From an uncultured archaeon (lineage in GTDB: Archaea; Iainarchaeota; Iainarchaeia; Iainarchaeales; CSSED10-239): DNA of 7,577 nt. Under the pieces are notes generated by a model. That model was not told the origin of the DNA and searched no databases. It was given only the letters and a program-made list of their open reading frames with translations. Location: NCBI GenBank assembly GCA_964468895.1, contig CAYXWT010000021.1, forward strand, positions 5,323 through 12,899, in the 5' to 3' direction. The position numbers and the translations under genes are program-made. Shown here piece by piece: positions 1 through 7,577 of this stretch; position 1 is the first letter of the stretch; every line of letters starts with the position of its first letter.

Positions 1-12
1 AATGTGAAAAAT

Positions 13-3000
13 ATGTCTTTTGCTGATAAATATCAAGAATTTTTAGAAAAAATAAATAATAGAATTCCTATCAAAGGAATTACTAATAAATTAGATTCAA
101 AAAATAAATTGATTTCTTTTTATATTTTTATTATATTAATAGTAATTATAATTTTATTAATATTTAAGCCATTTTCTTTATTTAATGATCCAATTCCTAA
201 TTATAATGATGTTAGTTTCAAGTTAGCAGATAGTAATGGAAATTTACTTCCTAATTTTACATTTAAAATAAAAGATTTAGATTTAGATGAAATTCAACAA
301 TATGCTACAGATAATACTGGTGAAACAAAGGTCACTTTAGATGTTTCTAAATTATATGAATTTCAAGTTGAAAAACCAGGTTTTGAATCAAAAGTACAAG
401 ATGTAGATCCAAATGAATTAAATTATAATATTATTTTACAAATATTTAATTTAACAACTGAAACTACAAGAGTTTTAAGTTTTGTAGATCCAAAAACTGG
501 TGAATTAATAACTGAAGATATGCAAGTAACTTTAAGTTGTGAAAACAGAGAGTATGTGGTTTCACCACAAAGTAATCAAGTAAATGGATCTTATGAAGTA
601 AGTGTTCCTTTAGATTGTGGTAATTTAATGGTTAGTGCTCATAGTGATAATTATGAAATTAATAGTGTTCCTGTTTCTGAAACTAATAGTATAGTTGAAA
701 TGGATGAATTAGATATTGTAAGTAGTTTTGGAAGTTTACAAGTTATGACTCAAAGTGGAAATAATTTACTTACAAATATTAGAGTTATGGTTTATTCTGT
801 AAATGATTTAATAAATCATGTAAAAGTAGGAGATACTATTAGTGGGTCTATTAGATTTTCAGAAATTCCTATAGGAGATTATAAAATTATATGTGATGAT
901 ATTTCTGGAATTTATGCTTCAAGTGAAAAAGAAATTAATATTAAAAAAAATAAACTTAATGTAGAAATAATGGATTTAGTAACAGTAAATGGATCTGGAA
1001 ATTCTGGAGATGTTGATTCTAATATTACTACAAATCCTATAAATGTATTTTTAAAAGATTCTTTTACAGATTTAGAAATTACAGATACTTTGTTAAATCC
1101 CATTATATCATTAATAGATGGGAACCAAACAGTTTCTTATAAGATGTATACTCAAGGTGGAGTCACTTTTAATATTGAACCAAATAAAGATTATAGTATA
1201 AAAGTAGAAGTTGATAATTATCTTAATGTTAGTAAAGATATAACAACAGGTTTTGATAATATTGAGATATCTTTAGATCCAGTTACACCAGATAATTCTT
1301 CTGATATTTATGTAAATATAAAAGATGAAGATTTATTAGCTGTAAATAATTCTTATGTTTGGATTTATGATCAGGTTTGTGAGTATCAAGATGTTAGATA
1401 TTCACCAGTAGTAAGTGATAGTAATGGTCAAGCTTTGTTTGAAGATATAGCCATTGGAAATTATTGTTTAAAAACTATAAAGGGACCTATTAATGGAGTT
1501 AGTGATTCTTTTGAATTAATTGCAAATGATGATAGTAATGTAAGTTTAAATGTTTTTATAGGTCAAGGTACTATTAATTTAAATATTAAAAACAAATATG
1601 AAGATATTATTACTGGAGCAAATGTTGATGTTTATAATAGTGTAGATGAATTTATTGGTAGTGATTTTACTAATAATAGTGGTGTATTTAATCATAGTGT
1701 TAAAGCAGATAAAAAAATATATTTAAAAATTAGTAAAAGTGGATATTTAGATTATTATACTACTCTTTTAGAAATTTATGATAATAAAACAATTTCAAAA
1801 GATATTGTTTTAGAAAATATAACAACACCAGTTTTACCTGACATTAAATTTGATGGAATATATAATTCTGATAATCAAAAAGTAAATGTTTTATATCAAA
1901 ATAATTATTATACATATAAATTTAAAATTATAAATCCACTTGATGGAAGTTTTGGAATCAGATTTAATATTGGTGATGAATATTTAGTAAGTAATGATAT
2001 TGTTTATATTAAAGATATTTCAGAAAACTTTGAAAGTGTTGTTTATTATAATGATTCTAATTTTACAAATTTAGTGAATAGTAATATTCCTTCAAATTCA
2101 ATAGATGTTTATTGGCCTAGTTCTAGTTCTGCAGTTTATGAATTAGAAATTCCAATTAAGGTTAAAAATGCACTTTCTGGAAATGCTGTTCCTTTTAAAT
2201 ATTGGAGTTATAAAGATTTTATAATTGGAGATGAACATCAAGATGTTTATTATTTAGATACAGAAAGTTTATGTGGAAATGATTTTTGTATATCTGGACA
2301 ATATTATGATTTAGTTGATAATATAGTAACAGATATTGGTCAAGCTCCTATTATTTTTAAAATTAATAGTCCTTATAATTTGAAATATGAAATTACTAAT
2401 GCTTCTAGTAATTCTTATGAAAATCCTAAATTAATTTTAAAAAATAAAAATGTTGAAGGTGGTCAAGATCAATCTTTAGATTTTACGAGATCTAATATAA
2501 ATCAAATTACAAATAATACTTCACAATCTAATGTTTTTTATAGTTCAGAAAATTCAACTTTAGGTTCTCAAAATTTTATTTTACCATATAATGGTTTGTT
2601 TTTAGAATCTGATAAATTAAATGTTTATGATAACATTAACTTTGATTTAGATATTTTACCAATAGTATATGGTAATACAAAGATAAATCATGAAATTAGA
2701 TCTCAGCAAAGTATAGTTTATAATGATGATTTAGATATTGTAGTTTCAGAAGAGTTTGAAGATATGTATGTTAATTATTCACCACATAATATTGTTCCAA
2801 ATACTAATTTTGTATTAAACTTAAATATAAAAGATAAAGATGATTTGCCATTAAGTGATGTTATTGTTAATATTTCTAGTATATCTAATGGTAGAAAAAC
2901 AAATTTATCTGCTGGTTTATATACTAATTTAGAAGGTGTTCTAAACATAGATATTCCTGCTTTAGAAAATGGAGAAACTTTAGAAATACAAGCTACTAAA

Positions 3001-6000
3001 CCTTATTATCATACTGATCCTATAATAATAAATATTCAAGAAGATTTAATAGATATTTATAAAGACAATTCTTTAATTAGTGATGATAATCCTTTTGAAA
3101 TTAATATTAATAAAAATTTAATTACTGGTGTAGTTGAAACTATAACTTTAAAAAATAAAACTAATTATGATTTAGAATTAAATTTATTAAATTCTAAAGA
3201 TATTTCTTTTACGTATAATGATTATTTAAATTTAAATCAAACATTAAATTATATAAATAATAATATTGGTAATGTTGATTCACAAGAAAGTAATTTTATT
3301 ATTAATGCAAATTCAGAAAAGAATTTAGATATTAAATTAAGTCCAAGTACTTCAGCTCAAATACTAAACCAATCTTTAGATATTGCTGGTTCTATTAAGT
3401 TTAGTTTTTCTAAAGAAAACTCTAGTGCTAAGTATTTAGTAAATCTTCCAATAAAAAGTGTACTGTCTATTGGAGAAGGTGTTTTTAGAAATGATTGTTT
3501 AATAATAAGTGATATTCAAAATCCTTGGACTGGTATAGCTAGTTCTGGTGTTCCATTAATGTCACAATTTAAAATTATGAATGTTTGTAAAAGCTTTGAA
3601 AATTCTGCATTTCCAATAACTTTAAATAATATAAAAGTAAAAATTGTTCAACAAGAAGATAGATATGGTTATTATGATTTAACTATTGGAAATATTACTA
3701 AAAGATTAAGAGAAGGAGCTTATGAAGAAATTATAAATAATATTGAACCTAATAGAGAATATGTCGCAACTTTAAAATATACTCCTTTAAATGTAAAAAA
3801 AGGAAATATTTCTACTAAGATTTATTTTAATGGAGAAGTAGAAACTAATAATGGTTTAGAATTTGTAAATGCTGAAGAAGGAACTAGTTCAATGATAGAA
3901 ACTGAATTTAAAATTCTAAATCTAACAGATTGTATTGATTTTTATGATGGAACTAGAAAAATAAATGATGTTTTTGAAATTGGAGAAGATGTTTCGGAAA
4001 TAACTGGTACAAAAGAATTAACTCTAAAAAATAAATGTTCAGATATAGAAGATTTAAAAGTTGTTTTTTGTGAAAATTATGAAGAAGGTTGTCTAGATCT
4101 TTTAACTCTTGGTTTTGGAAATATGACTGGATCTAATAATAATGAATTAGATTTTAGTGTAGGTGAAAGCGAACAAGTAATAGATATTCCAAAGCCAGAA
4201 ATACCTGGTGCATATAAAATTACTGTTGATGTGTATGCTATTACTAATAATAATAGAAAAATAGCTGGTGGAGAAAAAAGATTAAAAATAAATGTTAAAG
4301 ATAGATTATTTACTGGTATTAAGAAAAATACAGATGCTCCATTTGTAGAAATGACTAAAACAACAATAGATGGAGAAGATTGTTATATTTCTGATGAAGT
4401 AATTTTATATAATAATGATCTTAATTATACACCTTGGCATTATGCTACTAGAAAATCTACTGAAAAAATTGGTTTTAGTAAATATATGGATGATTCAGAT
4501 GAAGCAATAGCAGTTCTTAAAAAGGTATATGGAACTGATCCTAATGATTATAATGATTCGTTTATAGGTAGTAATACTGAATTTTATAAACTTATAAAGT
4601 TTGAAAAATTAGAAGACTTAGATAATTCACATACTGGTGGAAATTTAGATAGTGGTTGGTGGAATTTTGGGGGTACTGTTTCAGGATTATCTGGAGTTTT
4701 AGGAGCGGTAGCTGGCTTAGCTGCTCCTGCAGTAGCAGGAACAGCAGCAATAGCAGCAACAACAACTACTACAATTGTAGCAACAGCAGCAGCAACAGCT
4801 ACTACTACAGTTGCAACTACAGCTGGGGCAGCTGTGGCTGGGACAGCAGCAGGAACTGGAATCTTTGCATCTGCTGGACCTGTACTTGCAAGTTTAGGGC
4901 CTTATGGTTGGGCAGCTTTGGGAGTGATTTCTATAGGTTGTTTTTTAGCAGATACTTTTGAAAATGATTATACTTGGGATGTGGATTATGAATTTGTAGA
5001 TTTAGATAGTTTATACACTTTGCCAGAATTAATTGATTCTAAAATAATCACTATAGAGAATACTGATCTTCAAGATGAAAGAATTGATGTGTTTGATATT
5101 ACTGGTGCTAGATTTATAAATTATTTAGAGGCGTATGGTTATACTACAAAAGGTGGTCAATCTGATAAACTTCTTAATGATCAAACTTTAGAAATGGATA
5201 TTCCTAAATGTAATGGTGCTGAACATAGATATTTATTAGATAATTTTGAATATATTACAAATAGTAAGAATTGTTCAAGTTCTTTTTCAAGTAAAGATAT
5301 TGGTGATGATTCTATAGTTTATAAAACTAAATGTTATGGTTCTTGGCCAAGAAATAAAATAACTTTAGAGGAATCATCTTATACAGCTTGTGCTTATGAT
5401 AAAGAAATTTGGCCAGAACAAGCTGGTTATAAACCTTTAATATTTAAAGTTACTAAAGAAAGTGATAGAGAAGCTTATGATATTTTAGAAAACGGGGGTA
5501 ATTTTTATAAAACTATTACATTTTATCCAGATTTAGATGATTCTACTCAAGATATAGATTATGCTTTTATAGGTGCAGTTCCTATAAATCAAGATGGTGA
5601 ATATAGATTCGAGTTACATGTTCAAGATGTACCTGAACAAGTAGATCCTGATCTTAATTATGTGGATTGTTATACTGATACAGGTATATATGGTAAAACT
5701 GGACTTGGTGCAGTTCCAAAAGTTAAATTTAATTGGGATTGGAGTAATATTGAACCAAATAATAATTGTCAAGATAGTTATTGTGATGCTACACAATTAA
5801 CTCAACAAATTTTATATAGAATATATAAAGCTAATAATTTAATAGATGAACAAAAGGATAAGATAGTATGCCCAAAAAGTAATAAAGAATTATTAGATGA
5901 ATCAAACGATGGCAGTTATGTTTTGTATACAGATAATGATTCTTTAGAAAATGAAGTTTTACCTTCAAAAGTTGGTATATCTAATATTAATCTAAGTACT

Positions 6001-7577
6001 GATAGTAATTTATTTAAAATTAGTGTAGATATACAAAATAGAACCACTTCTTTACAAGGTGGTGTTTTAGATTTTAATTTAAATAATTATGCTATTCCAC
6101 AAAGTGTTGAATTATTTGCTTGTAGAGCTTTAATGGATTGTAGTAATCCTAACTCTTGGTATTGGATAAATAGAGATTATAGTTCTTCAGGTATGTCTTT
6201 AGAAGTTCCTTATGGTTATGAAGATGTCTCTTCTTTAGTTTTTACTTATGGTACTCAAGATGATCCACTAATAGGAGATGATTTACAATTATCTGTTAAT
6301 TATACTGGTGATAATTTAGATACTTATCATTCTACATTTGAGAGTACAATTACTTTAAATACATATCAATCTCAAACTTATGATTCTTGTTTAGTTCCTG
6401 CAATAACATCTGTTATGAATGGAGTAAGTTATATTGATATGTGGTTTAATGATAGTACTAACGCATATCCACAAAATGTAGAATCTAGTTGGGATATAGA
6501 AGATATAAATGCTTTAAAGAATTATTTAGAGTTTGAAGCTTATTTAATTACAGACAAATATAATAAATCATTTATAAATGATTTTGATAAAGCATATGCT
6601 GGATCAGCATCTAGAAAACAAGGCATTTTAGAAAATGTAGAAGGTTATTTTACAAATGAACCTTATTCAGGAAATAATGGATTTTTATCACCTTTATTTA
6701 AAAATAATTTAGAATTTTTAGATAAATTTTCTTCTAGCCCTGATGGTGTTGATATTTTAACTCCTGGTTTATATAAAATTAGAATTGATTTTATATTTGA
6801 TAATGAAAAATGGGATTTTGTAGTTGATGATGAAATAGATGTAAGTACAATTGTAAGTTTTACAAAATTAAGTAATCCAATAGATAATAGTGCATTTTAT
6901 AGATTGCCATTTGATGGATCTGTTGGTTATAAATATGATGATCAGTCTTATACTAGATTTGGATATGGTCTTTCCTATTTAGGAGATAATATTAAATTAT
7001 ATGATGGTAGTAGTTCAGACATGTTTTCTGTATTTACTGGACAAGATACTGGTGGTGCTCCATTTAAATATTTAAATGTAAATAGAGAAACAGATTTCTT
7101 TAAAATAAATAGTAATATTGATACTAGAGGAAAAATACTTACTATCAAAACAAATAATTTCAATTCTAATCAAATAGATATGATGTTTGCTCCAAGTGTA
7201 GCAACTCCTGTTTTATTAAATATTCAAAGAAATATTACTAGTCCATTTAGTATTTATTATCAATTAGTAAATAATTCTGAAAATGAAATTGTATTTGGAA
7301 ATAATACTTTAAATTATTGGAATGGTGTTGGTAATTATTTAGATTTTAGTGGTGCTCCAGTTTATAGTCAGTTCCAAAACTATTATGATAGGTCTACTAG
7401 TTATGATGATGCTGTAAATCAAGGATATGCTATAGATTGGGATAATGTTGTTAGAACTGGACAAGTAAATTTAAGAACTATATTTTACACTCCAATTGAC
7501 CAGTCTAGTAATTTTGAGAAACCTTATAGTTTGAAAATTAAAAGTACTGGTAATGATCCAACTTCTAAGTTTTATAA
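13..7577 (+). CDS. Giant membrane-anchored, repeat-rich surface (adhesin-like) protein. The 5' end is probably in the window; the 3' end is truncated by the window edge (at least 2,521 codons).
   Basis: Frame +1 has no stop from nt 1 to nt 7577 (2,525 complete codons plus 2 nt). Every 60-nt line starts in frame and each was checked. The other five frames give nothing longer than 101 codons in the supplied track. Codon usage is uniform throughout: strong A/T third-position bias, Leu TTA, Arg AGA, Gly GGT/GGA, Ala GCA/GCT. The first in-frame ATG is at 13, and GTG at 4 is an alternative. Only 12 nt lie upstream with no in-frame stop, so an earlier start cannot be excluded. ATG 13 is favoured because a ~32-aa Lys-rich tail and then a hydrophobic helix follow it, the layout of a type II signal anchor. 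A weak GTGA (4-7) could be a partial Shine-Dalgarno. No stop occurs before the window edge. Confidence 0.92.
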   Translation, partial: MSFADKYQEFLEKINNRIPIKGITNKLDSKNKLISFYIFIILIVIIILLIFKPFSLFNDPIPNYNDVSFKLADSNGNLLPNFTFKIKDLDLDEIQQYATDNTGETKVTLDVSKLYEFQVEKPGFESKVQDVDPNELNYNIILQIFNLTTETTRVLSFVDPKTGELITEDMQVTLSCENREYVVSPQSNQVNGSYEVSVPLDCGNLMVSAHSDNYEINSVPVSETNSIVEMDELDIVSSFGSLQVMTQSGNNLLTNIRVMVYSVNDLINHVKVGDTISGSIRFSEIPIGDYKIICDDISGIYASSEKEINIKKNKLNVEIMDLVTVNGSGNSGDVDSNITTNPINVFLKDSFTDLEITDTLLNPIISLIDGNQTVSYKMYTQGGVTFNIEPNKDYSIKVEVDNYLNVSKDITTGFDNIEISLDPVTPDNSSDIYVNIKDEDLLAVNNSYVWIYDQVCEYQDVRYSPVVSDSNGQALFEDIAIGNYCLKTIKGPINGVSDSFELIANDDSNVSLNVFIGQGTINLNIKNKYEDIITGANVDVYNSVDEFIGSDFTNNSGVFNHSVKADKKIYLKISKSGYLDYYTTLLEIYDNKTISKDIVLENITTPVLPDIKFDGIYNSDNQKVNVLYQNNYYTYKFKIINPLDGSFGIRFNIGDEYLVSNDIVYIKDISENFESVVYYNDSNFTNLVNSNIPSNSIDVYWPSSSSAVYELEIPIKVKNALSGNAVPFKYWSYKDFIIGDEHQDVYYLDTESLCGNDFCISGQYYDLVDNIVTDIGQAPIIFKINSPYNLKYEITNASSNSYENPKLILKNKNVEGGQDQSLDFTRSNINQITNNTSQSNVFYSSENSTLGSQNFILPYNGLFLESDKLNVYDNINFDLDILPIVYGNTKINHEIRSQQSIVYNDDLDIVVSEEFEDMYVNYSPHNIVPNTNFVLNLNIKDKDDLPLSDVIVNISSISNGRKTNLSAGLYTNLEGVLNIDIPALENGETLEIQATKPYYHTDPIIINIQEDLIDIYKDNSLISDDNPFEININKNLITGVVETITLKNKTNYDLELNLLNSKDISFTYNDYLNLNQTLNYINNNIGNVDSQESNFIINANSEKNLDIKLSPSTSAQILNQSLDIAGSIKFSFSKENSSAKYLVNLPIKSVLSIGEGVFRNDCLIISDIQNPWTGIASSGVPLMSQFKIMNVCKSFENSAFPITLNNIKVKIVQQEDRYGYYDLTIGNITKRLREGAYEEIINNIEPNREYVATLKYTPLNVKKGNISTKIYFNGEVETNNGLEFVNAEEGTSSMIETEFKILNLTDCIDFYDGTRKINDVFEIGEDVSEITGTKELTLKNKCSDIEDLKVVFCENYEEGCLDLLTLGFGNMTGSNNNELDFSVGESEQVIDIPKPEIPGAYKITVDVYAITNNNRKIAGGEKRLKINVKDRLFTGIKKNTDAPFVEMTKTTIDGEDCYISDEVILYNNDLNYTPWHYATRKSTEKIGFSKYMDDSDEAIAVLKKVYGTDPNDYNDSFIGSNTEFYKLIKFEKLEDLDNSHTGGNLDSGWWNFGGTVSGLSGVLGAVAGLAAPAVAGTAAIAATTTTTIVATAAATATTTVATTAGAAVAGTAAGTGIFASAGPVLASLGPYGWAALGVISIGCFLADTFENDYTWDVDYEFVDLDSLYTLPELIDSKIITIENTDLQDERIDVFDITGARFINYLEAYGYTTKGGQSDKLLNDQTLEMDIPKCNGAEHRYLLDNFEYITNSKNCSSSFSSKDIGDDSIVYKTKCYGSWPRNKITLEESSYTACAYDKEIWPEQAGYKPLIFKVTKESDREAYDILENGGNFYKTITFYPDLDDSTQDIDYAFIGAVPINQDGEYRFELHVQDVPEQVDPDLNYVDCYTDTGIYGKTGLGAVPKVKFNWDWSNIEPNNNCQDSYCDATQLTQQILYRIYKANNLIDEQKDKIVCPKSNKELLDESNDGSYVLYTDNDSLENEVLPSKVGISNINLSTDSNLFKISVDIQNRTTSLQGGVLDFNLNNYAIPQSVELFACRALMDCSNPNSWYWINRDYSSSGMSLEVPYGYEDVSSLVFTYGTQDDPLIGDDLQLSVNYTGDNLDTYHSTFESTITLNTYQSQTYDSCLVPAITSVMNGVSYIDMWFNDSTNAYPQNVESSWDIEDINALKNYLEFEAYLITDKYNKSFINDFDKAYAGSASRKQGILENVEGYFTNEPYSGNNGFLSPLFKNNLEFLDKFSSSPDGVDILTPGLYKIRIDFIFDNEKWDFVVDDEIDVSTIVSFTKLSNPIDNSAFYRLPFDGSVGYKYDDQSYTRFGYGLSYLGDNIKLYDGSSSDMFSVFTGQDTGGAPFKYLNVNRETDFFKINSNIDTRGKILTIKTNNFNSNQIDMMFAPSVATPVLLNIQRNITSPFSIYYQLVNNSENEIVFGNNTLNYWNGVGNYLDFSGAPVYSQFQNYYDRSTSYDDAVNQGYAIDWDNVVRTGQVNLRTIFYTPIDQSSNFEKPYSLKIKSTGNDPTSKFY
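109..165 (+). other. N-terminal signal-anchor transmembrane helix (LISFYIFIILIVIIILLIF)
   Basis: Nineteen consecutive uncharged, mostly Ile/Leu/Phe residues. They are preceded by KGITNKLDSKNK (four Lys, nt 73-108) and followed by KPFSLFNDP. The n-region is too long (~32 aa) for a typical cleaved Sec signal. The positive-inside rule predicts N-in with the rest of the protein outside. Confidence 0.75.
205..1815 (+). repeat. Six tandem, diverged ~85-105-aa beta-sandwich repeats (protein-level), carboxypeptidase-regulatory-like / Cna-B-like pattern
   Basis: Each unit shows the recurring pattern [D/N/S]-x-[N/T/S]-G ... hydrophobic-alternating strand ... G-x-Y-x-[IL]. Unit 1: ATDNTGETKVTL..LYEFQVEKPGFES (307-390). 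Unit 2: NGSYEVSVPLDCGNLMVSAHSDNYE (583-657). Unit 3: ISGSIRFSEIPIGDYKIIC (838-894). Unit 4: GGVTFNIEPNKDYSIKVEVDNY (1156-1221). Unit 5: SDSNGQALFEDIAIGNYCLK (1414-1473). Unit 6: TNNSGVFNHSV..KIYLKISKSGY (1669-1746). The anchor Gly codons at 319, 586, 844, 1159, 1426 and 1681 are spaced 255-315 nt apart. The family assignment comes from remembered motif shape only. Confidence 0.55.
2806..3040 (+). other. Isolated seventh copy of the same beta-sandwich repeat type
   Basis: NFVLNLNIKDKDDLPLSDVIVNISSISNGRKTNLSAGLYTNLEGVLNIDIPALENGETLEIQATKPYYHT has the same layout as units 1-6: a short 'v.v.d..g.pl..v.v' start, an x-E-G-V-L-N-I strand, then G-E-T-L-E-I-Q-A-x-K-P-Y-Y. Confidence 0.45.
3088..4305 (+). 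repeat. Three larger (~125-150 aa) beta-sandwich modules of CARDB/DUF11-like appearance, two sharing an FEI..ITG..TLKNK signature
   Basis: Module 1 has FEI 3094-3102, ITG 3121-3129 and TLKNK 3145-3159. Module 3 has FEI 3973-3981, ITG 4000-4008 and TLKNK 4021-4035, the same order and spacing apart from a 1-residue indel. The middle module (about 3472-3920) has the analogous WTG..SQFKIMN..ITLNNIKVKI. A further ILKNK lies at 2434-2448. Each module ends in an alternating-hydrophobic strand (KYLVNLPI, IETEFKIL, KRLKINV). Borders are approximate and the family name is a guess. Confidence 0.4.
4651..4950 (+). other. Internal 100-residue charge-free Ala/Gly/Thr-rich hydrophobic segment (candidate multi-span, hairpin or membrane-insertion element)
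   Basis: There is no D/E/K/R/H between Asp 4648-4650 and Asp 4951-4953. Counted composition is 28 Ala, 17 Gly, 16 Thr, 9 Val, 7 Leu, 6 Ser, 5 Ile, 3 Trp, 3 Phe, 3 Pro, and 1 each of Asn, Tyr and Cys. The rest of the protein is dominated by N/D/K/I/E/S. GxxxG motifs are present (GTVSG, GAVAG, GTAAG), with aromatic residues at both ends (GWWNFGG ... GPYGWAALG). GC is about 50% over 4681-4920 (121/240 by hand count). Confidence 0.75.
4741..4854 (+). repeat. Cryptic in-frame triplet low-complexity tract (GCA/ACA/ACT/GCT-type codons) encoding an Ala/Thr run
   Basis: The tract reads aca gca gca ata gca gca aca aca act act aca att gta gca aca gca gca gca aca gct act act aca gtt gca act aca gct ggg gca gct gtg gct ggg aca gca gca gga. 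It translates to TAAIAATTTTTIVATAAATATTTVATTAGAAVAGTAAG. Confidence 0.65.
4951..7577 (+). other. C-terminal polar region (at least 875 aa, truncated) of unknown fold, with a Cys-containing sub-region at 5209-6390
   Basis: This is the same ORF, downstream of the hydrophobic segment. It has 11 Cys codons at 5209, 5272, 5332, 5389, 5668, 5767, 5782, 5869, 6121, 6139 and 6388, several in close pairs, then none from 6391 to the window edge. It is rich in Tyr, Trp, Asp and Asn. I recognise no catalytic or binding motif: no HExxH, no P-loop, no Ser-protease signature. Confidence 0.4.

Follow-up and report, generated by a model that had tools for sequence, protein, structure and literature searches.

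Giant surface proteins of DPANN archaea and the Iainarchaeota gene

The DPANN archaea make up a large share of archaeal diversity, and their surface molecules are almost entirely unknown: no DPANN surface-layer (S-layer) protein has been determined, and the only giant proteins that have been discussed are the SPEAREs of the Nanohaloarchaeota. The SPEARE giants (SVXNc_0300, BNXNv_0298) are 5,000-9,400 amino acids (aa) long and have a Sec signal, beta-propellers, Ig-like domains, and a cytosol-facing VirB4/TraG-like ATPase domain (formerly described as a 'restriction endonuclease'), with a VirB4 gene lying downstream (PMC10266531). The gene considered here fills a 7,577-nucleotide (nt) stretch of DNA, referred to below as the window, at positions 5,323 to 12,899 of the forward strand of contig CAYXWT010000021.1 (assembly GCA_964468895.1), from an uncultured archaeon of the Iainarchaeota. 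Like the SPEARE genes, it ranks with the largest genes of a tiny DPANN genome and encodes an acidic (pI ~4), membrane-bound protein with a huge Ig-like-rich ectodomain and a presumed role in cell-cell interaction (PMC10266531). On balance, and if only by a little, this protein is probably one subunit of a multi-protein envelope or contact apparatus at the cell surface, a stalk with a head that is fixed in length and tethered at two points.

Set beside the published description of the SPEAREs, the protein is smaller (~2,600 aa), and its models contain beta-sandwiches only and no propeller; it begins with a signal-anchor preceded by a conserved tail, has a hydrophobic element in its interior, and ends in a head that is an unrelated orphan. 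Neither Pfam nor NCBIfam gave a match to SPEARE-type ATPase, serine protease, or nuclease domains in the window protein or in 17 relatives. An earlier note, made from the letters of the window, had seen no SPEARE-type protease or nuclease signature and had proposed a different and possibly uncharacterised family. Both statements agree with the searches: no Pfam, NCBIfam, or motif match of this kind was obtained, the ATPase included, and no curated library or solved structure describes the family. Membership in the SPEARE group was rejected on the absence of ATPase, protease, and nuclease signatures and of Walker A and GxSxG motifs, and on the unlike size.

Several other systems present strings of beta-sandwich domains. 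Domains of the Big_1, CarboxypepD_reg, and SdrD_B types are arrayed on the surface by the adhesin-like proteins (ALPs) of Methanobrevibacter and Methanosphaera and by SiiE, LapA, and PrgB. The ALPs and giant Ig-repeat adhesins have near-identical repeats in variable copy number, many scattered paralogues, and other routes of anchoring or secretion, whereas the window protein has divergent domains, no DNA repeats, a fixed length, a syntenic gene, and a conserved tail and head. The MG arrays of alpha-2-macroglobulin, A2ML1, CD109, and C5 and the ASH/PapD-like arrays of hydin resemble one part of the protein (region B, below), at the level of fold only. Weak Pfam matches to MG4 and bMG3 do occur in the window protein and family members. 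Membership in the alpha-2-macroglobulin family was nevertheless rejected for want of a thioester motif or a TED domain: the window protein has no CxEQ motif and no TED, CUB, or bait region, and its C-terminal module has no match to a TED-like helical toroid.

The family profile also matches NOMO2 (E = 2e-4). NOMO, a component of the BOS complex, is likewise a membrane-anchored rod of CarboxypepD_reg/prealbumin-like domains, and its Ig-like rod has a rod or spacer role; the likeness extends to one domain type only. NOMO differs in being a eukaryotic protein of the endoplasmic reticulum lumen with a C-terminal anchor, no head module, and no internal hydrophobic element. In Mycoplasma mobile, which has an AT-rich minimal genome, an operon of giant, fixed-size, membrane-anchored surface proteins (Gli123, Gli349, and Gli521) together with an NTPase gene provides one machine. 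Here the comparison is one of analogy, as the gliding system is bacterial and no likeness to the window protein in sequence or fold is expected.

The S-layer candidates of DPANN archaea (NEQ300, Micr_00292, and MJ1_0160) are ~1,000 aa long and have ~5 Ig-like folds (bioRxiv 10.1101/2023.10.27.564410). Archaeal S-layer proteins, both SlaA/SlaB and these candidates, share with the window protein an extracellular, Ig-like-rich build and the status of sequence orphans, and some have membrane-anchored stalks; they offer no counterpart to its conserved tail, internal element, and 900-aa head. In general kind, the window protein belongs with the membrane-anchored giants of Ig-like build on the surface of ultrasmall archaea of the symbiont type. 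Within Pfam and NCBIfam it falls into no S-layer, alpha-2-macroglobulin, or adhesin family and has only generic domain folds in common with these. A search of the literature on giant, large, or surface proteins of DPANN archaea and Iainarchaeota found no description of the module family, a negative that is weak evidence given incomplete full-text coverage.

A single, intact gene

Frame +1 of the window is open for all of its 2,525 codons, as the earlier note had stated, with no stop under translation tables 1, 4, 6, 11, 15, or 25. An alternative genetic code or recoding was considered and is not needed, all six tables giving the same result. The remaining five frames contain 146-465 stops each, and their longest open runs span 51-105 codons. 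At the base composition of the window (A 38.0 %, T 36.7 %, G 15.9 %, C 9.5 %; GC 25 %), ~9.7 % of triplets are expected to be stops, and the natural logarithm of the probability (ln P) that frame +1 would contain none is about -258, which upholds the earlier estimate of well below e^-200. The same note had given the other frames no more than 101 codons; this holds for the longest listed open reading frame (ORF), which the raw open runs exceed trivially, at 102 and 105. It had also drawn attention to the absence of the giant frame from the mechanical ORF list. The frame is indeed missing from that list, which contains four ORFs of 60-101 aa, because ORFs that run off either source end are left out. 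The absence is a listing artefact without biological signal.

Three full-length relatives, of 2,525, 2,465, and 2,487 aa, emerged when 5.8 billion proteins were searched; they are 52, 36, and 36 % identical to the query over 99-100 % of its length and are each encoded by one uninterrupted gene on its own contig; two giants of greater distance were also matched. Scanning the GTDB species genomes brought in another five loci with orthologues, along with seven at a greater distance. The eight orthologues, of 2,426-2,525 aa and 33-52 % identity, are collinear with the window protein end to end and are single genes, never split into several, in all eight loci. Profile searches gave no full-length match to a characterised family. 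The 12 related genome loci are labelled Candidatus Iainarchaeum, Diapherotrites, or simply 'archaeon', and once Micrarchaeota. They lie on chromosomal contigs, the largest of 671 kb.

The probable start codon is the ATG at nt 13, and the MSF... with which the protein then begins is kept in all orthologues. Upstream of it, an in-frame leader (nt 1..12; this and all other window features described below are on the + strand) makes the translation open with NVKN-M, without a stop, so that the ORF leaves the window at its 5' end. Within the window the protein has 2,521 aa, a mass of 283 kDa, and a pI of 4.3. The earlier note had called the product still incomplete. This is true, yet by only ~60-80 residues: the orthologues run 58-77 aa beyond the window end, and therefore only the last ~60-80 codons are lacking. 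Judged from these lengths, the full product should be an acidic protein of ~2,580-2,600 aa and ~290 kDa. The extreme C-terminal motif of the orthologues, ...CV(T/x)..xG...(F/V)(W/Y)(W/Y)NP..IY, falls beyond the window end.

Could the frame nevertheless be an artefact, whether a pseudogene remnant, a product of chimeric assembly or repeat collapse, or an open frame that codes for nothing, or else a gene of viral or mobile origin? Such an origin would be easier to entertain in that the window holds neither a stop nor flanks, so that completeness is not directly visible, that it contains one low-complexity tandem array (4729-4838), and that scans of public collections for the exact protein, for an exact 58-nt DNA sequence, and for close relatives found no copy. 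Set against this are the ln P of about -258 and the collinearity of orthologues at 33-52 % identity over the whole length. In addition, no long direct or inverted DNA repeats are present in the window, the longest being 39 nt at 74 %, and the only tandem arrays of note are those at 4729-4838, with scores of 31-102. With DNA repeats this short and a single short tandem array, a collapsed-repeat or chimeric assembly is unlikely; collapsed repeats were ruled out by the repeat and tandem scans of the window. No tRNA genes and no Rfam matches were found in the window. A viral or mobile origin was rejected as well, searches of PHROGs and viral contigs having given no PHROG, phage, or viral-contig relatives, and the related loci being chromosomal contigs of up to 671 kb. 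An artefact is thus effectively excluded, and the single gene in the window, which comes from an Iainarchaeota (Diapherotrites, DPANN) archaeon, is genuine and intact, short only of its 3' end.

Predicted cytoplasmic tail and membrane anchor

The earlier note had described a layout of N-terminal membrane anchor, stacked beta-sandwich domains, internal hydrophobic element, and large unrecognisable C-terminal part, and all four are present. To these can be added a conserved N-terminal tail, recognised from its conservation and charge. The start codon and the tail (aa 1-34, nt 13..114, MSFADKYQEFLEKINNRIPIKGITNKLDSKNKLI) form the best-conserved stretch among the orthologues, with 50-85 % identity, and follow a family-wide motif, (D/E)K(W/Y)(Y/Q)..(L/I)(D/E)K(I/V)(D/N)..(I/V)P(I/V).K(I/V)..(I/L)D...P.F. 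The motif, which has no Pfam match, recurs at the N-termini of distant giants (those of the related loci L004, L007, L013, L014, and L016) that are only ~20 % identical overall. The tail is basic, with K+R = 7 and D+E = 4, and by the positive-inside rule it would sit inside the cell.

The tail is followed by an N-terminal transmembrane anchor (aa 35-55, nt 115..177, SFYIFIILIVIIILLIFKPFS) that hydropathy predicts to be a type II signal-anchor. This segment is rich in Ile, Leu, and Phe and is free of Ala. Its Kyte-Doolittle 19-residue maximum is 3.48, and its summed Hessa-type insertion free energy (dG; scale values after the published table) is -7.3 for the best 19-residue window, aa 33-51. 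An anchor of this type is found in nearly all family giants; thus, in its conserved N-terminal motif followed by a single strong transmembrane anchor, the window protein agrees with its family.

Beta-sandwich stalk and linker

Two regions of consecutive beta-sandwich domains follow the anchor. Region A (aa 56-620, nt 178..1872) is assigned ~6 domains of the prealbumin/CarboxypepD_reg-like type, a count estimated from its length. Pfam matches are to CarboxypepD_reg at aa 524-600 (E = 4.7e-9), to SpaA at aa 462-493 (E = 3.9e-7), and, weakly, to PEGA at aa 101-140. CarboxypepD_reg was matched in 18/18 family giants scanned, and the other Pfam families encountered in these 18 were of beta-sandwich types only (SdrD_B, bMG3, Big_1, and MG4).

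Region B (aa 621-1440, nt 1873..4332) has ~8 beta-sandwich domains of the MG, ASH, or Ig-like type, as judged from an AlphaFold2 model, Foldseek, and weak Pfam matches, the latter including MG4 at aa 928-995. The model, built on a 35-sequence alignment, is all-beta with pLDDT of ~85-95 and contains about eight consecutive sandwiches. In Foldseek it matches hydin/ASH arrays, the MG arrays of A2ML1, CD109, and C5, and the Ig domains of PrgB, with a probability of 1.0 and TM-scores of only 0.1-0.26; at such scores the likeness is one of individual domains and not of overall shape.

The ~14 domains form a collinear array, as in the family, and contain conserved Cys pairs. Region A has the invariant pair C176/C202, and region B the conserved pairs C754/C759, C1162/C1192, and C1307/C1342. 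Across the family, the invariant Cys residues N-terminal of the hydrophobic element are C176/C202, C1162/C1192, and C1307, and C1342 is invariant among four close relatives only. Between the stalk and the hydrophobic element, alignment and model place an acidic, poorly conserved linker (aa 1441-1554, nt 4333..4674; D+E = 22, K+R = 10) of 16-35 % identity, with short helices at pLDDT ~50-60.

An ectodomain that is Ig-like-rich, acidic, membrane-anchored, and furnished with conserved cysteines also recalls an S-layer. On such a reading, the giant and the paralogues encoded in its gene cluster (described below) would be lattice and anchor proteins of an Iainarchaeota wall, like SlaA/SlaB, in which the membrane-anchored stalk would set a pseudo-periplasmic spacing and the head would form a canopy. 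A conserved, syntenic, phylum-wide family of fixed length is consistent with this, as is the orphan, Ig-like nature of the S-layer candidates from DPANN archaea (bioRxiv 10.1101/2023.10.27.564410). However, those candidates are proteins of ~1,000 aa with ~5 Ig-like folds and not of 2,500 aa, and S-layer proteins in general tend to show little conservation and to have no conserved tail in the cytoplasm, whereas the tail is the best-conserved part here. No S-layer family (SlaA/SlaB, DUF1608, S_layer_N/C) was matched in Pfam, NCBIfam, or PDB sequence. Furthermore, the sequon counts are 14, 17, and 10, against 8.9, 13.7, and 11.7 expected from composition. Their density is not clearly above expectation, and sequon enrichment was discarded as evidence for surface glycosylation. 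A role in an S-layer is rather unlikely.

The internal hydrophobic element

Composition and hydropathy mark out an internal hydrophobic element (aa 1555-1650, nt 4675..4962) of two segments, the second of which, GPYGWAALGVISIGCFLADTF, is the conserved one. The element is uncharged, with no Lys or Arg over 96 aa, and 68 % of it is Ala, Gly, Ser, or Thr (29 % Ala, 18 % Thr, and 15 % Gly). Elsewhere in the protein, Ala makes up 1.8-3.5 % of each region, except for the N-terminal transmembrane segment, which has none. Because of this Ala/Gly/Thr-rich composition, the encoding DNA shows a local GC spike of 0.40 against ~0.25 and is the only GC-rich patch of the window. Short tandem DNA arrays with periods of 9, 12, 33, and 36 nt (nt 4729..4838) encode an Ala/Thr-rich expansion within the element. 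The expansion of ~50 aa, built of 33-36-nt tandem units, is peculiar to the window protein and appears as an insertion in the alignment with P0001-P0003. The longest off-frame ORF of the window (4656-4961, frame +3, 101 aa, with a TTG start) coincides exactly with this GCN/ACN-rich, low-complexity stretch; it is almost certainly a by-product of composition and not a gene.

Despite being the least conserved sequence in the protein (9-25 % identity), the element has counterparts across the family. Of the 101 family proteins of at least 1,900 aa, 64, the window protein included, have a hydrophobic segment or a pair of them ~830-1,000 aa before the C-terminus, and the median content of Ala+Gly+Ser+Thr is 45 % in these internal segments versus 24 % in the N-terminal anchors of the same proteins. 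The small-residue-rich element of the family is thus found in the window protein, where it is expanded and only marginally hydrophobic. Its summed Hessa-type dG is +3.1 in the window protein and +0.6 to +2.5 in the orthologues, and reaches down to -4.2 in distant members. In the latter, the element consists of strongly hydrophobic helix pairs, often round a CP(P/V)C or GP.GW turn, and then acidic residues. In the AlphaFold2 model, pLDDT at the element is below 50 except for a predicted helix at aa 1631-1645. Both of its flanks are acidic, and since invariant Cys residues also occur on both sides, both large parts of the protein are placed, by inference, outside the cytoplasm. We infer from the distant members that the element would ancestrally have been a two-helix membrane hairpin.

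A more active role for the element may be imagined. In a membrane-active contact device, the stalk would present the Ala/Gly/Thr element ~1,500 residues out, and the element, acting like a fusion peptide or a glycine zipper, would enter the membrane of a partner and yield DPANN-host contact, a pore, or fusion. The composition is extreme for a genome of 25 % GC, the more so as the protein's own transmembrane anchor is rich in Ile, Leu, and Phe instead. Richness in small residues is family-wide, and 19 small-xxx-small motifs can be counted in the element. The marginal insertion energy predicted in the orthologue group and the acidic flanks on both sides are compatible with such a role, and the stand-alone paralogue described below has a homologous amphipathic Gly-rich segment after its signal peptide. 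However, the element of distant members is an ordinary, strongly hydrophobic helix pair (dG to -4.2), a finding that favours an ancestral hairpin in the protein's own membrane, and low conservation (9-25 % identity) together with the slippage-type tandem expansion in the window counts against such a device. The likeness to fusion peptides is one of composition only. Class I viral fusion proteins and fusexins were considered for comparison; in class I a hydrophobic fusion peptide precedes a heptad-repeat coiled coil, and class II has a beta fold of three domains with a fusion loop. What follows the element here is a beta-rich module without long coiled coils or heptad-repeat machinery, BFVD gave no viral structural match, and no host is known. 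Such a device is improbable.

The C-terminal head

The remainder of the protein is a single large module of ~900-960 aa (aa 1651-2521, nt 4963..7575), cut by the window end, that is Cys-bearing, mostly beta, and multidomain according to the AlphaFold2 model and profile search. When a module profile made from 4 sequences was compared with 1.84 billion cluster representatives, 555 matched at E <=1e-3, 475 at 1e-10, and 265 at 1e-30; the 555 are clusters at 50 % identity and stand as a lower bound for the module family. Most of the matches are proteins of 2,300-3,100 aa in which the module lies at the extreme C-terminus, and some are proteins of ~960-1,020 aa made of the module alone. The module of the window aligns with those of the orthologues over profile positions 1-897 and has all of the invariant residues, while most distant family members match profile positions ~450-890 only.

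No known family or fold accounts for the module as a whole. Comparison with Pfam, NCBIfam, and PHROGs gave no family match, and comparison with PDB sequence, made with the window sequence and with family profiles, gave no significant match (best E = 0.55). For the protein as a whole, Pfam, NCBIfam, PHROGs, and PDB sequence give only generic beta-sandwich matches, all in the N-terminal half. An AlphaFold2 model of the module, built on a 48-sequence alignment, has a mean pLDDT of 84, a predicted TM-score of 0.65, and 385 residues at pLDDT >=90. From N- to C-terminus it contains beta-rich domains, a helical, Cys-rich hinge with the invariant YCDATQ motif, a beta-sandwich, and a ~380-aa core of helix plus beta. 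Foldseek of the module against 350,542 PDB chains and BFVD returned only matches to single Ig-like domains, with query TM-scores of at most 0.10 and no global match.

Conservation is concentrated at two places. The first is the signature hinge (aa 1886-1960, nt 5668..5892), with the pattern DC.TD.G..G.TG...PKV.F.W.W ... YCDATQL ... CP, in which C1886, C1919, Y1923, C1924, D1925, and Q1928 are invariant and C1953 and P1954 nearly so. A long helix occupies model residues 276-296 in this region, and the hinge motif is also present in the stand-alone paralogue encoded upstream in related loci (E = 3e-12). The second, the most widely conserved part of the module, is the core (aa 2126-2521, nt 6388..7575), which is 40-61 % identical among orthologues and contains the motifs FEA.LITD.Y, R.GYG.SY.GD, TRG.IL.I, F.PS.ATPV, and LRTIFYTP. 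Aligned with the upstream paralogue by hhalign, the core gives a probability of 100 and E = 1e-44. The invariant signature of the module, C...G.TG...P.....W.W ... YCDATQ ... CP ... R.GYG ... TRG ... LRTIFYTP, is matched by the window protein.

In the 48 sequences, the 23 invariant residues of the module are Cys, Gly, Pro, and Trp/Tyr plus D1925, Q1928, and R2315; no His, Ser, Glu, or Lys is invariant. In addition, Walker A, HExxH, and GxSxG motifs are absent from the window protein. Given that neither invariant residues nor motifs of a catalytic type are found, the module is read as a structural or binding head and not as an enzyme. On the absence of catalytic signatures, then, the head would be a module for binding or assembly.

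Paralogues and the gene cluster of related loci

The window itself carries only 12 nt of flank, and the cluster context described here comes from relatives that are 33-52 % identical, synteny being seen in L001-L003 and L005-L009. Immediately before the giant, six of these loci (L001-L003 and L007-L009) have a gene for a stand-alone paralogue of the module, ~960-1,010 aa long (L002:702-3731, L003:2260-5211, L009:2391-5285, and L001:1-2544), which BLASTP matches to the module at 2e-29 plus 3e-12. L005 and L006 have at this position a gene for a smaller product (634 and 442 aa), which falls into the same broad similarity cluster. The stand-alone paralogue carries a cleavable-looking signal peptide and, after it, an amphipathic Gly-rich segment that can be lined up by eye with the second hydrophobic helix of the giant (NPIVHG.L.GA.S.INTF versus GP.GWAALG.ISIG.FLA.TF). 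Two genes upstream of the giant (L009:3-2357 and L003:1-2220) lies P1, a paralogue of region B, which matches aa 897-1429 of the window protein (E = 5e-17). The two upstream genes thus resemble unfused versions of the B and C parts of the giant, which points to duplication plus fusion, or to fission; the resemblance suggests a history of one of these kinds for the two regions.

Downstream of the giant in L005, L006, L007, and L009, over ~12.6-22.3 kb, co-directional genes encode a secreted protein of small size, a Gly-rich one of ~700-800 aa, and another giant (~2,000-2,130 aa), which has only the beta-sandwich part in common with the first. A polytopic membrane protein of ~120-150 aa follows in L005 and L009, and L006 and L007 end or differ at this point. 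The same membrane protein follows the single giant of the more distant loci L011-L014, together with further small membrane proteins, and L011-L013 also encode coiled-coil proteins and a protein of ~500 aa (L013:14040-15554, L011:14936-16501, and L012:9534-11138). None of the neighbouring cluster genes gave a significant match in Pfam, NCBIfam, or PDB. The ~500-aa protein has five sub-threshold PDB matches to HerA-family ATPases, all with one C-terminal region (E = 0.1-0.7), and the lysine of its putative Walker A motif is unconserved. It could be an FtsK/HerA-like protein that has degenerated.

This downstream block raises the question of whether the giant could serve a machine for secretion or DNA transfer as its extracellular arm, comparable to the SPEARE proteins as re-interpreted. 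Re-analysis of the SPEAREs gives a combination of Ig-like domains, a VirB4/TraG ATPase, and a downstream ATPase (PMC10266531). In L011-L013, the cluster does continue with small polytopic membrane, coiled-coil, and ~500-aa proteins, the last having HerA-family ATPases as its only PDB similarities, and a motor of this sort could offer a docking site to the conserved tail. However, the HerA-like matches lack significance and the lysine of the putative Walker A motif varies, the small membrane proteins match nothing in the libraries searched, and the giant itself has neither an ATPase domain nor a Walker A motif. Moreover, the loci nearest to the window break off too early, and the downstream block is not seen there. 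An arm of this kind is very improbable.

Some further observations concern the related loci themselves. The Logan contig from SRR8925748 (L002) and the GenBank contig JBAYPN010000003.1 of a metagenome-assembled genome (MAG; L007) both encode a giant of 2,465 aa and an upstream paralogue of 1,009 aa, and the N-terminal ~95 residues are identical or show one difference; the two are probably one population sampled twice. L004, a 101-kb contig labelled 'MAG archaeon', has three giant genes in 26 kb (2344-9339, 10001-18847, and 20324-27754) that encode proteins of 2,331, 2,948, and 2,476 aa, two with the C-terminal module and one with the beta-sandwich part only; a PIN-domain gene lies between giant genes. 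In L011, two genes are broken by runs of N, translated as X, and their N-termini are unreliable (L011:2031-4967 and L011:14828-14935).

A probable stalk-and-head subunit at the cell surface

Taken together, these results have led to the model of a doubly tethered stalk-and-head subunit. In this model, the short tail would remain in the cytoplasm, and the hydrophobic segment that follows would act as a type II (N-in) membrane anchor. Export of the beta-sandwich domains would give a rod with a length of tens of nanometres, after which the hydrophobic element would bring the chain back to a membrane, either as a helical hairpin or as a peripheral segment. The head would be displayed outside the cell, with its invariant cysteines stabilising it as disulfides. 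The giant and its paralogues would then build a defined envelope or contact apparatus, and the cytoplasmic tail would couple the protein to an intracellular or insertion partner.

The preference for a fixed complex over a variable adhesin comes from the constant length and domain order, the syntenic cluster with its paralogous parts, and the lack of DNA repeats. It also comes from the fact that conservation is strongest in the cytoplasmic tail and in the distal core of the head. Adhesins that evolve fast and vary in their repeats, as do the Methanobrevibacter ALPs, do not show this pattern, which speaks for a fixed structural complex of the envelope or of cell contact. The earlier note had named host-interaction or adhesion proteins, with these ALPs and the SPEAREs as examples, as typical of genes with such a size and layout in very AT-rich small genomes.

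It should be noted that several considerations weigh against the stalk-and-head model. The predicted topology draws on hydropathy, the positive-inside rule, and Cys conservation only, and the internal element may not span the membrane, given a dG of +0.6 to +3.1 in the orthologue group and a pLDDT below 50. The proposed binding role of the head draws on no positive match, and the presumed synteny of the window gene is extrapolated from relatives that are 33-52 % identical. Finally, whether Iainarchaeota have hosts at all is, to our knowledge, unsettled.

Implications for the Iainarchaeota

The giant gene takes up what we estimate to be ~1 % of a genome presumed to be of ~1 Mb. A giant surface protein in a DPANN genome will not surprise the specialist; the size of the family, the orphan head, the tail motif, and the hydrophobic element are testable leads. 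The family is a second family of giant surface proteins, unrelated to SPEARE. It is widespread, with no fewer than 555 clusters at 50 % identity; length and domain order are strongly conserved in it, and in the related loci examined its genes form syntenic clusters. Three of its features are without a described counterpart, namely the conserved cytoplasmic tail, the small-residue-rich internal element, and the confidently modelled 900-aa orphan head, and the family would merit a new Pfam or arCOG entry.

If the internal element did prove to be membrane-active, then, together with the head and the secreted paralogue, it would belong to an unrecognised, phylum-wide apparatus for breaching or fusing partner membranes and would provide a molecular handle on cytoplasmic contact between DPANN archaea and their hosts. 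If, instead, the giant and its paralogues do build an envelope or contact apparatus, as the stalk-and-head model proposes, this would bear on whether the Iainarchaeota are free-living or host-associated.

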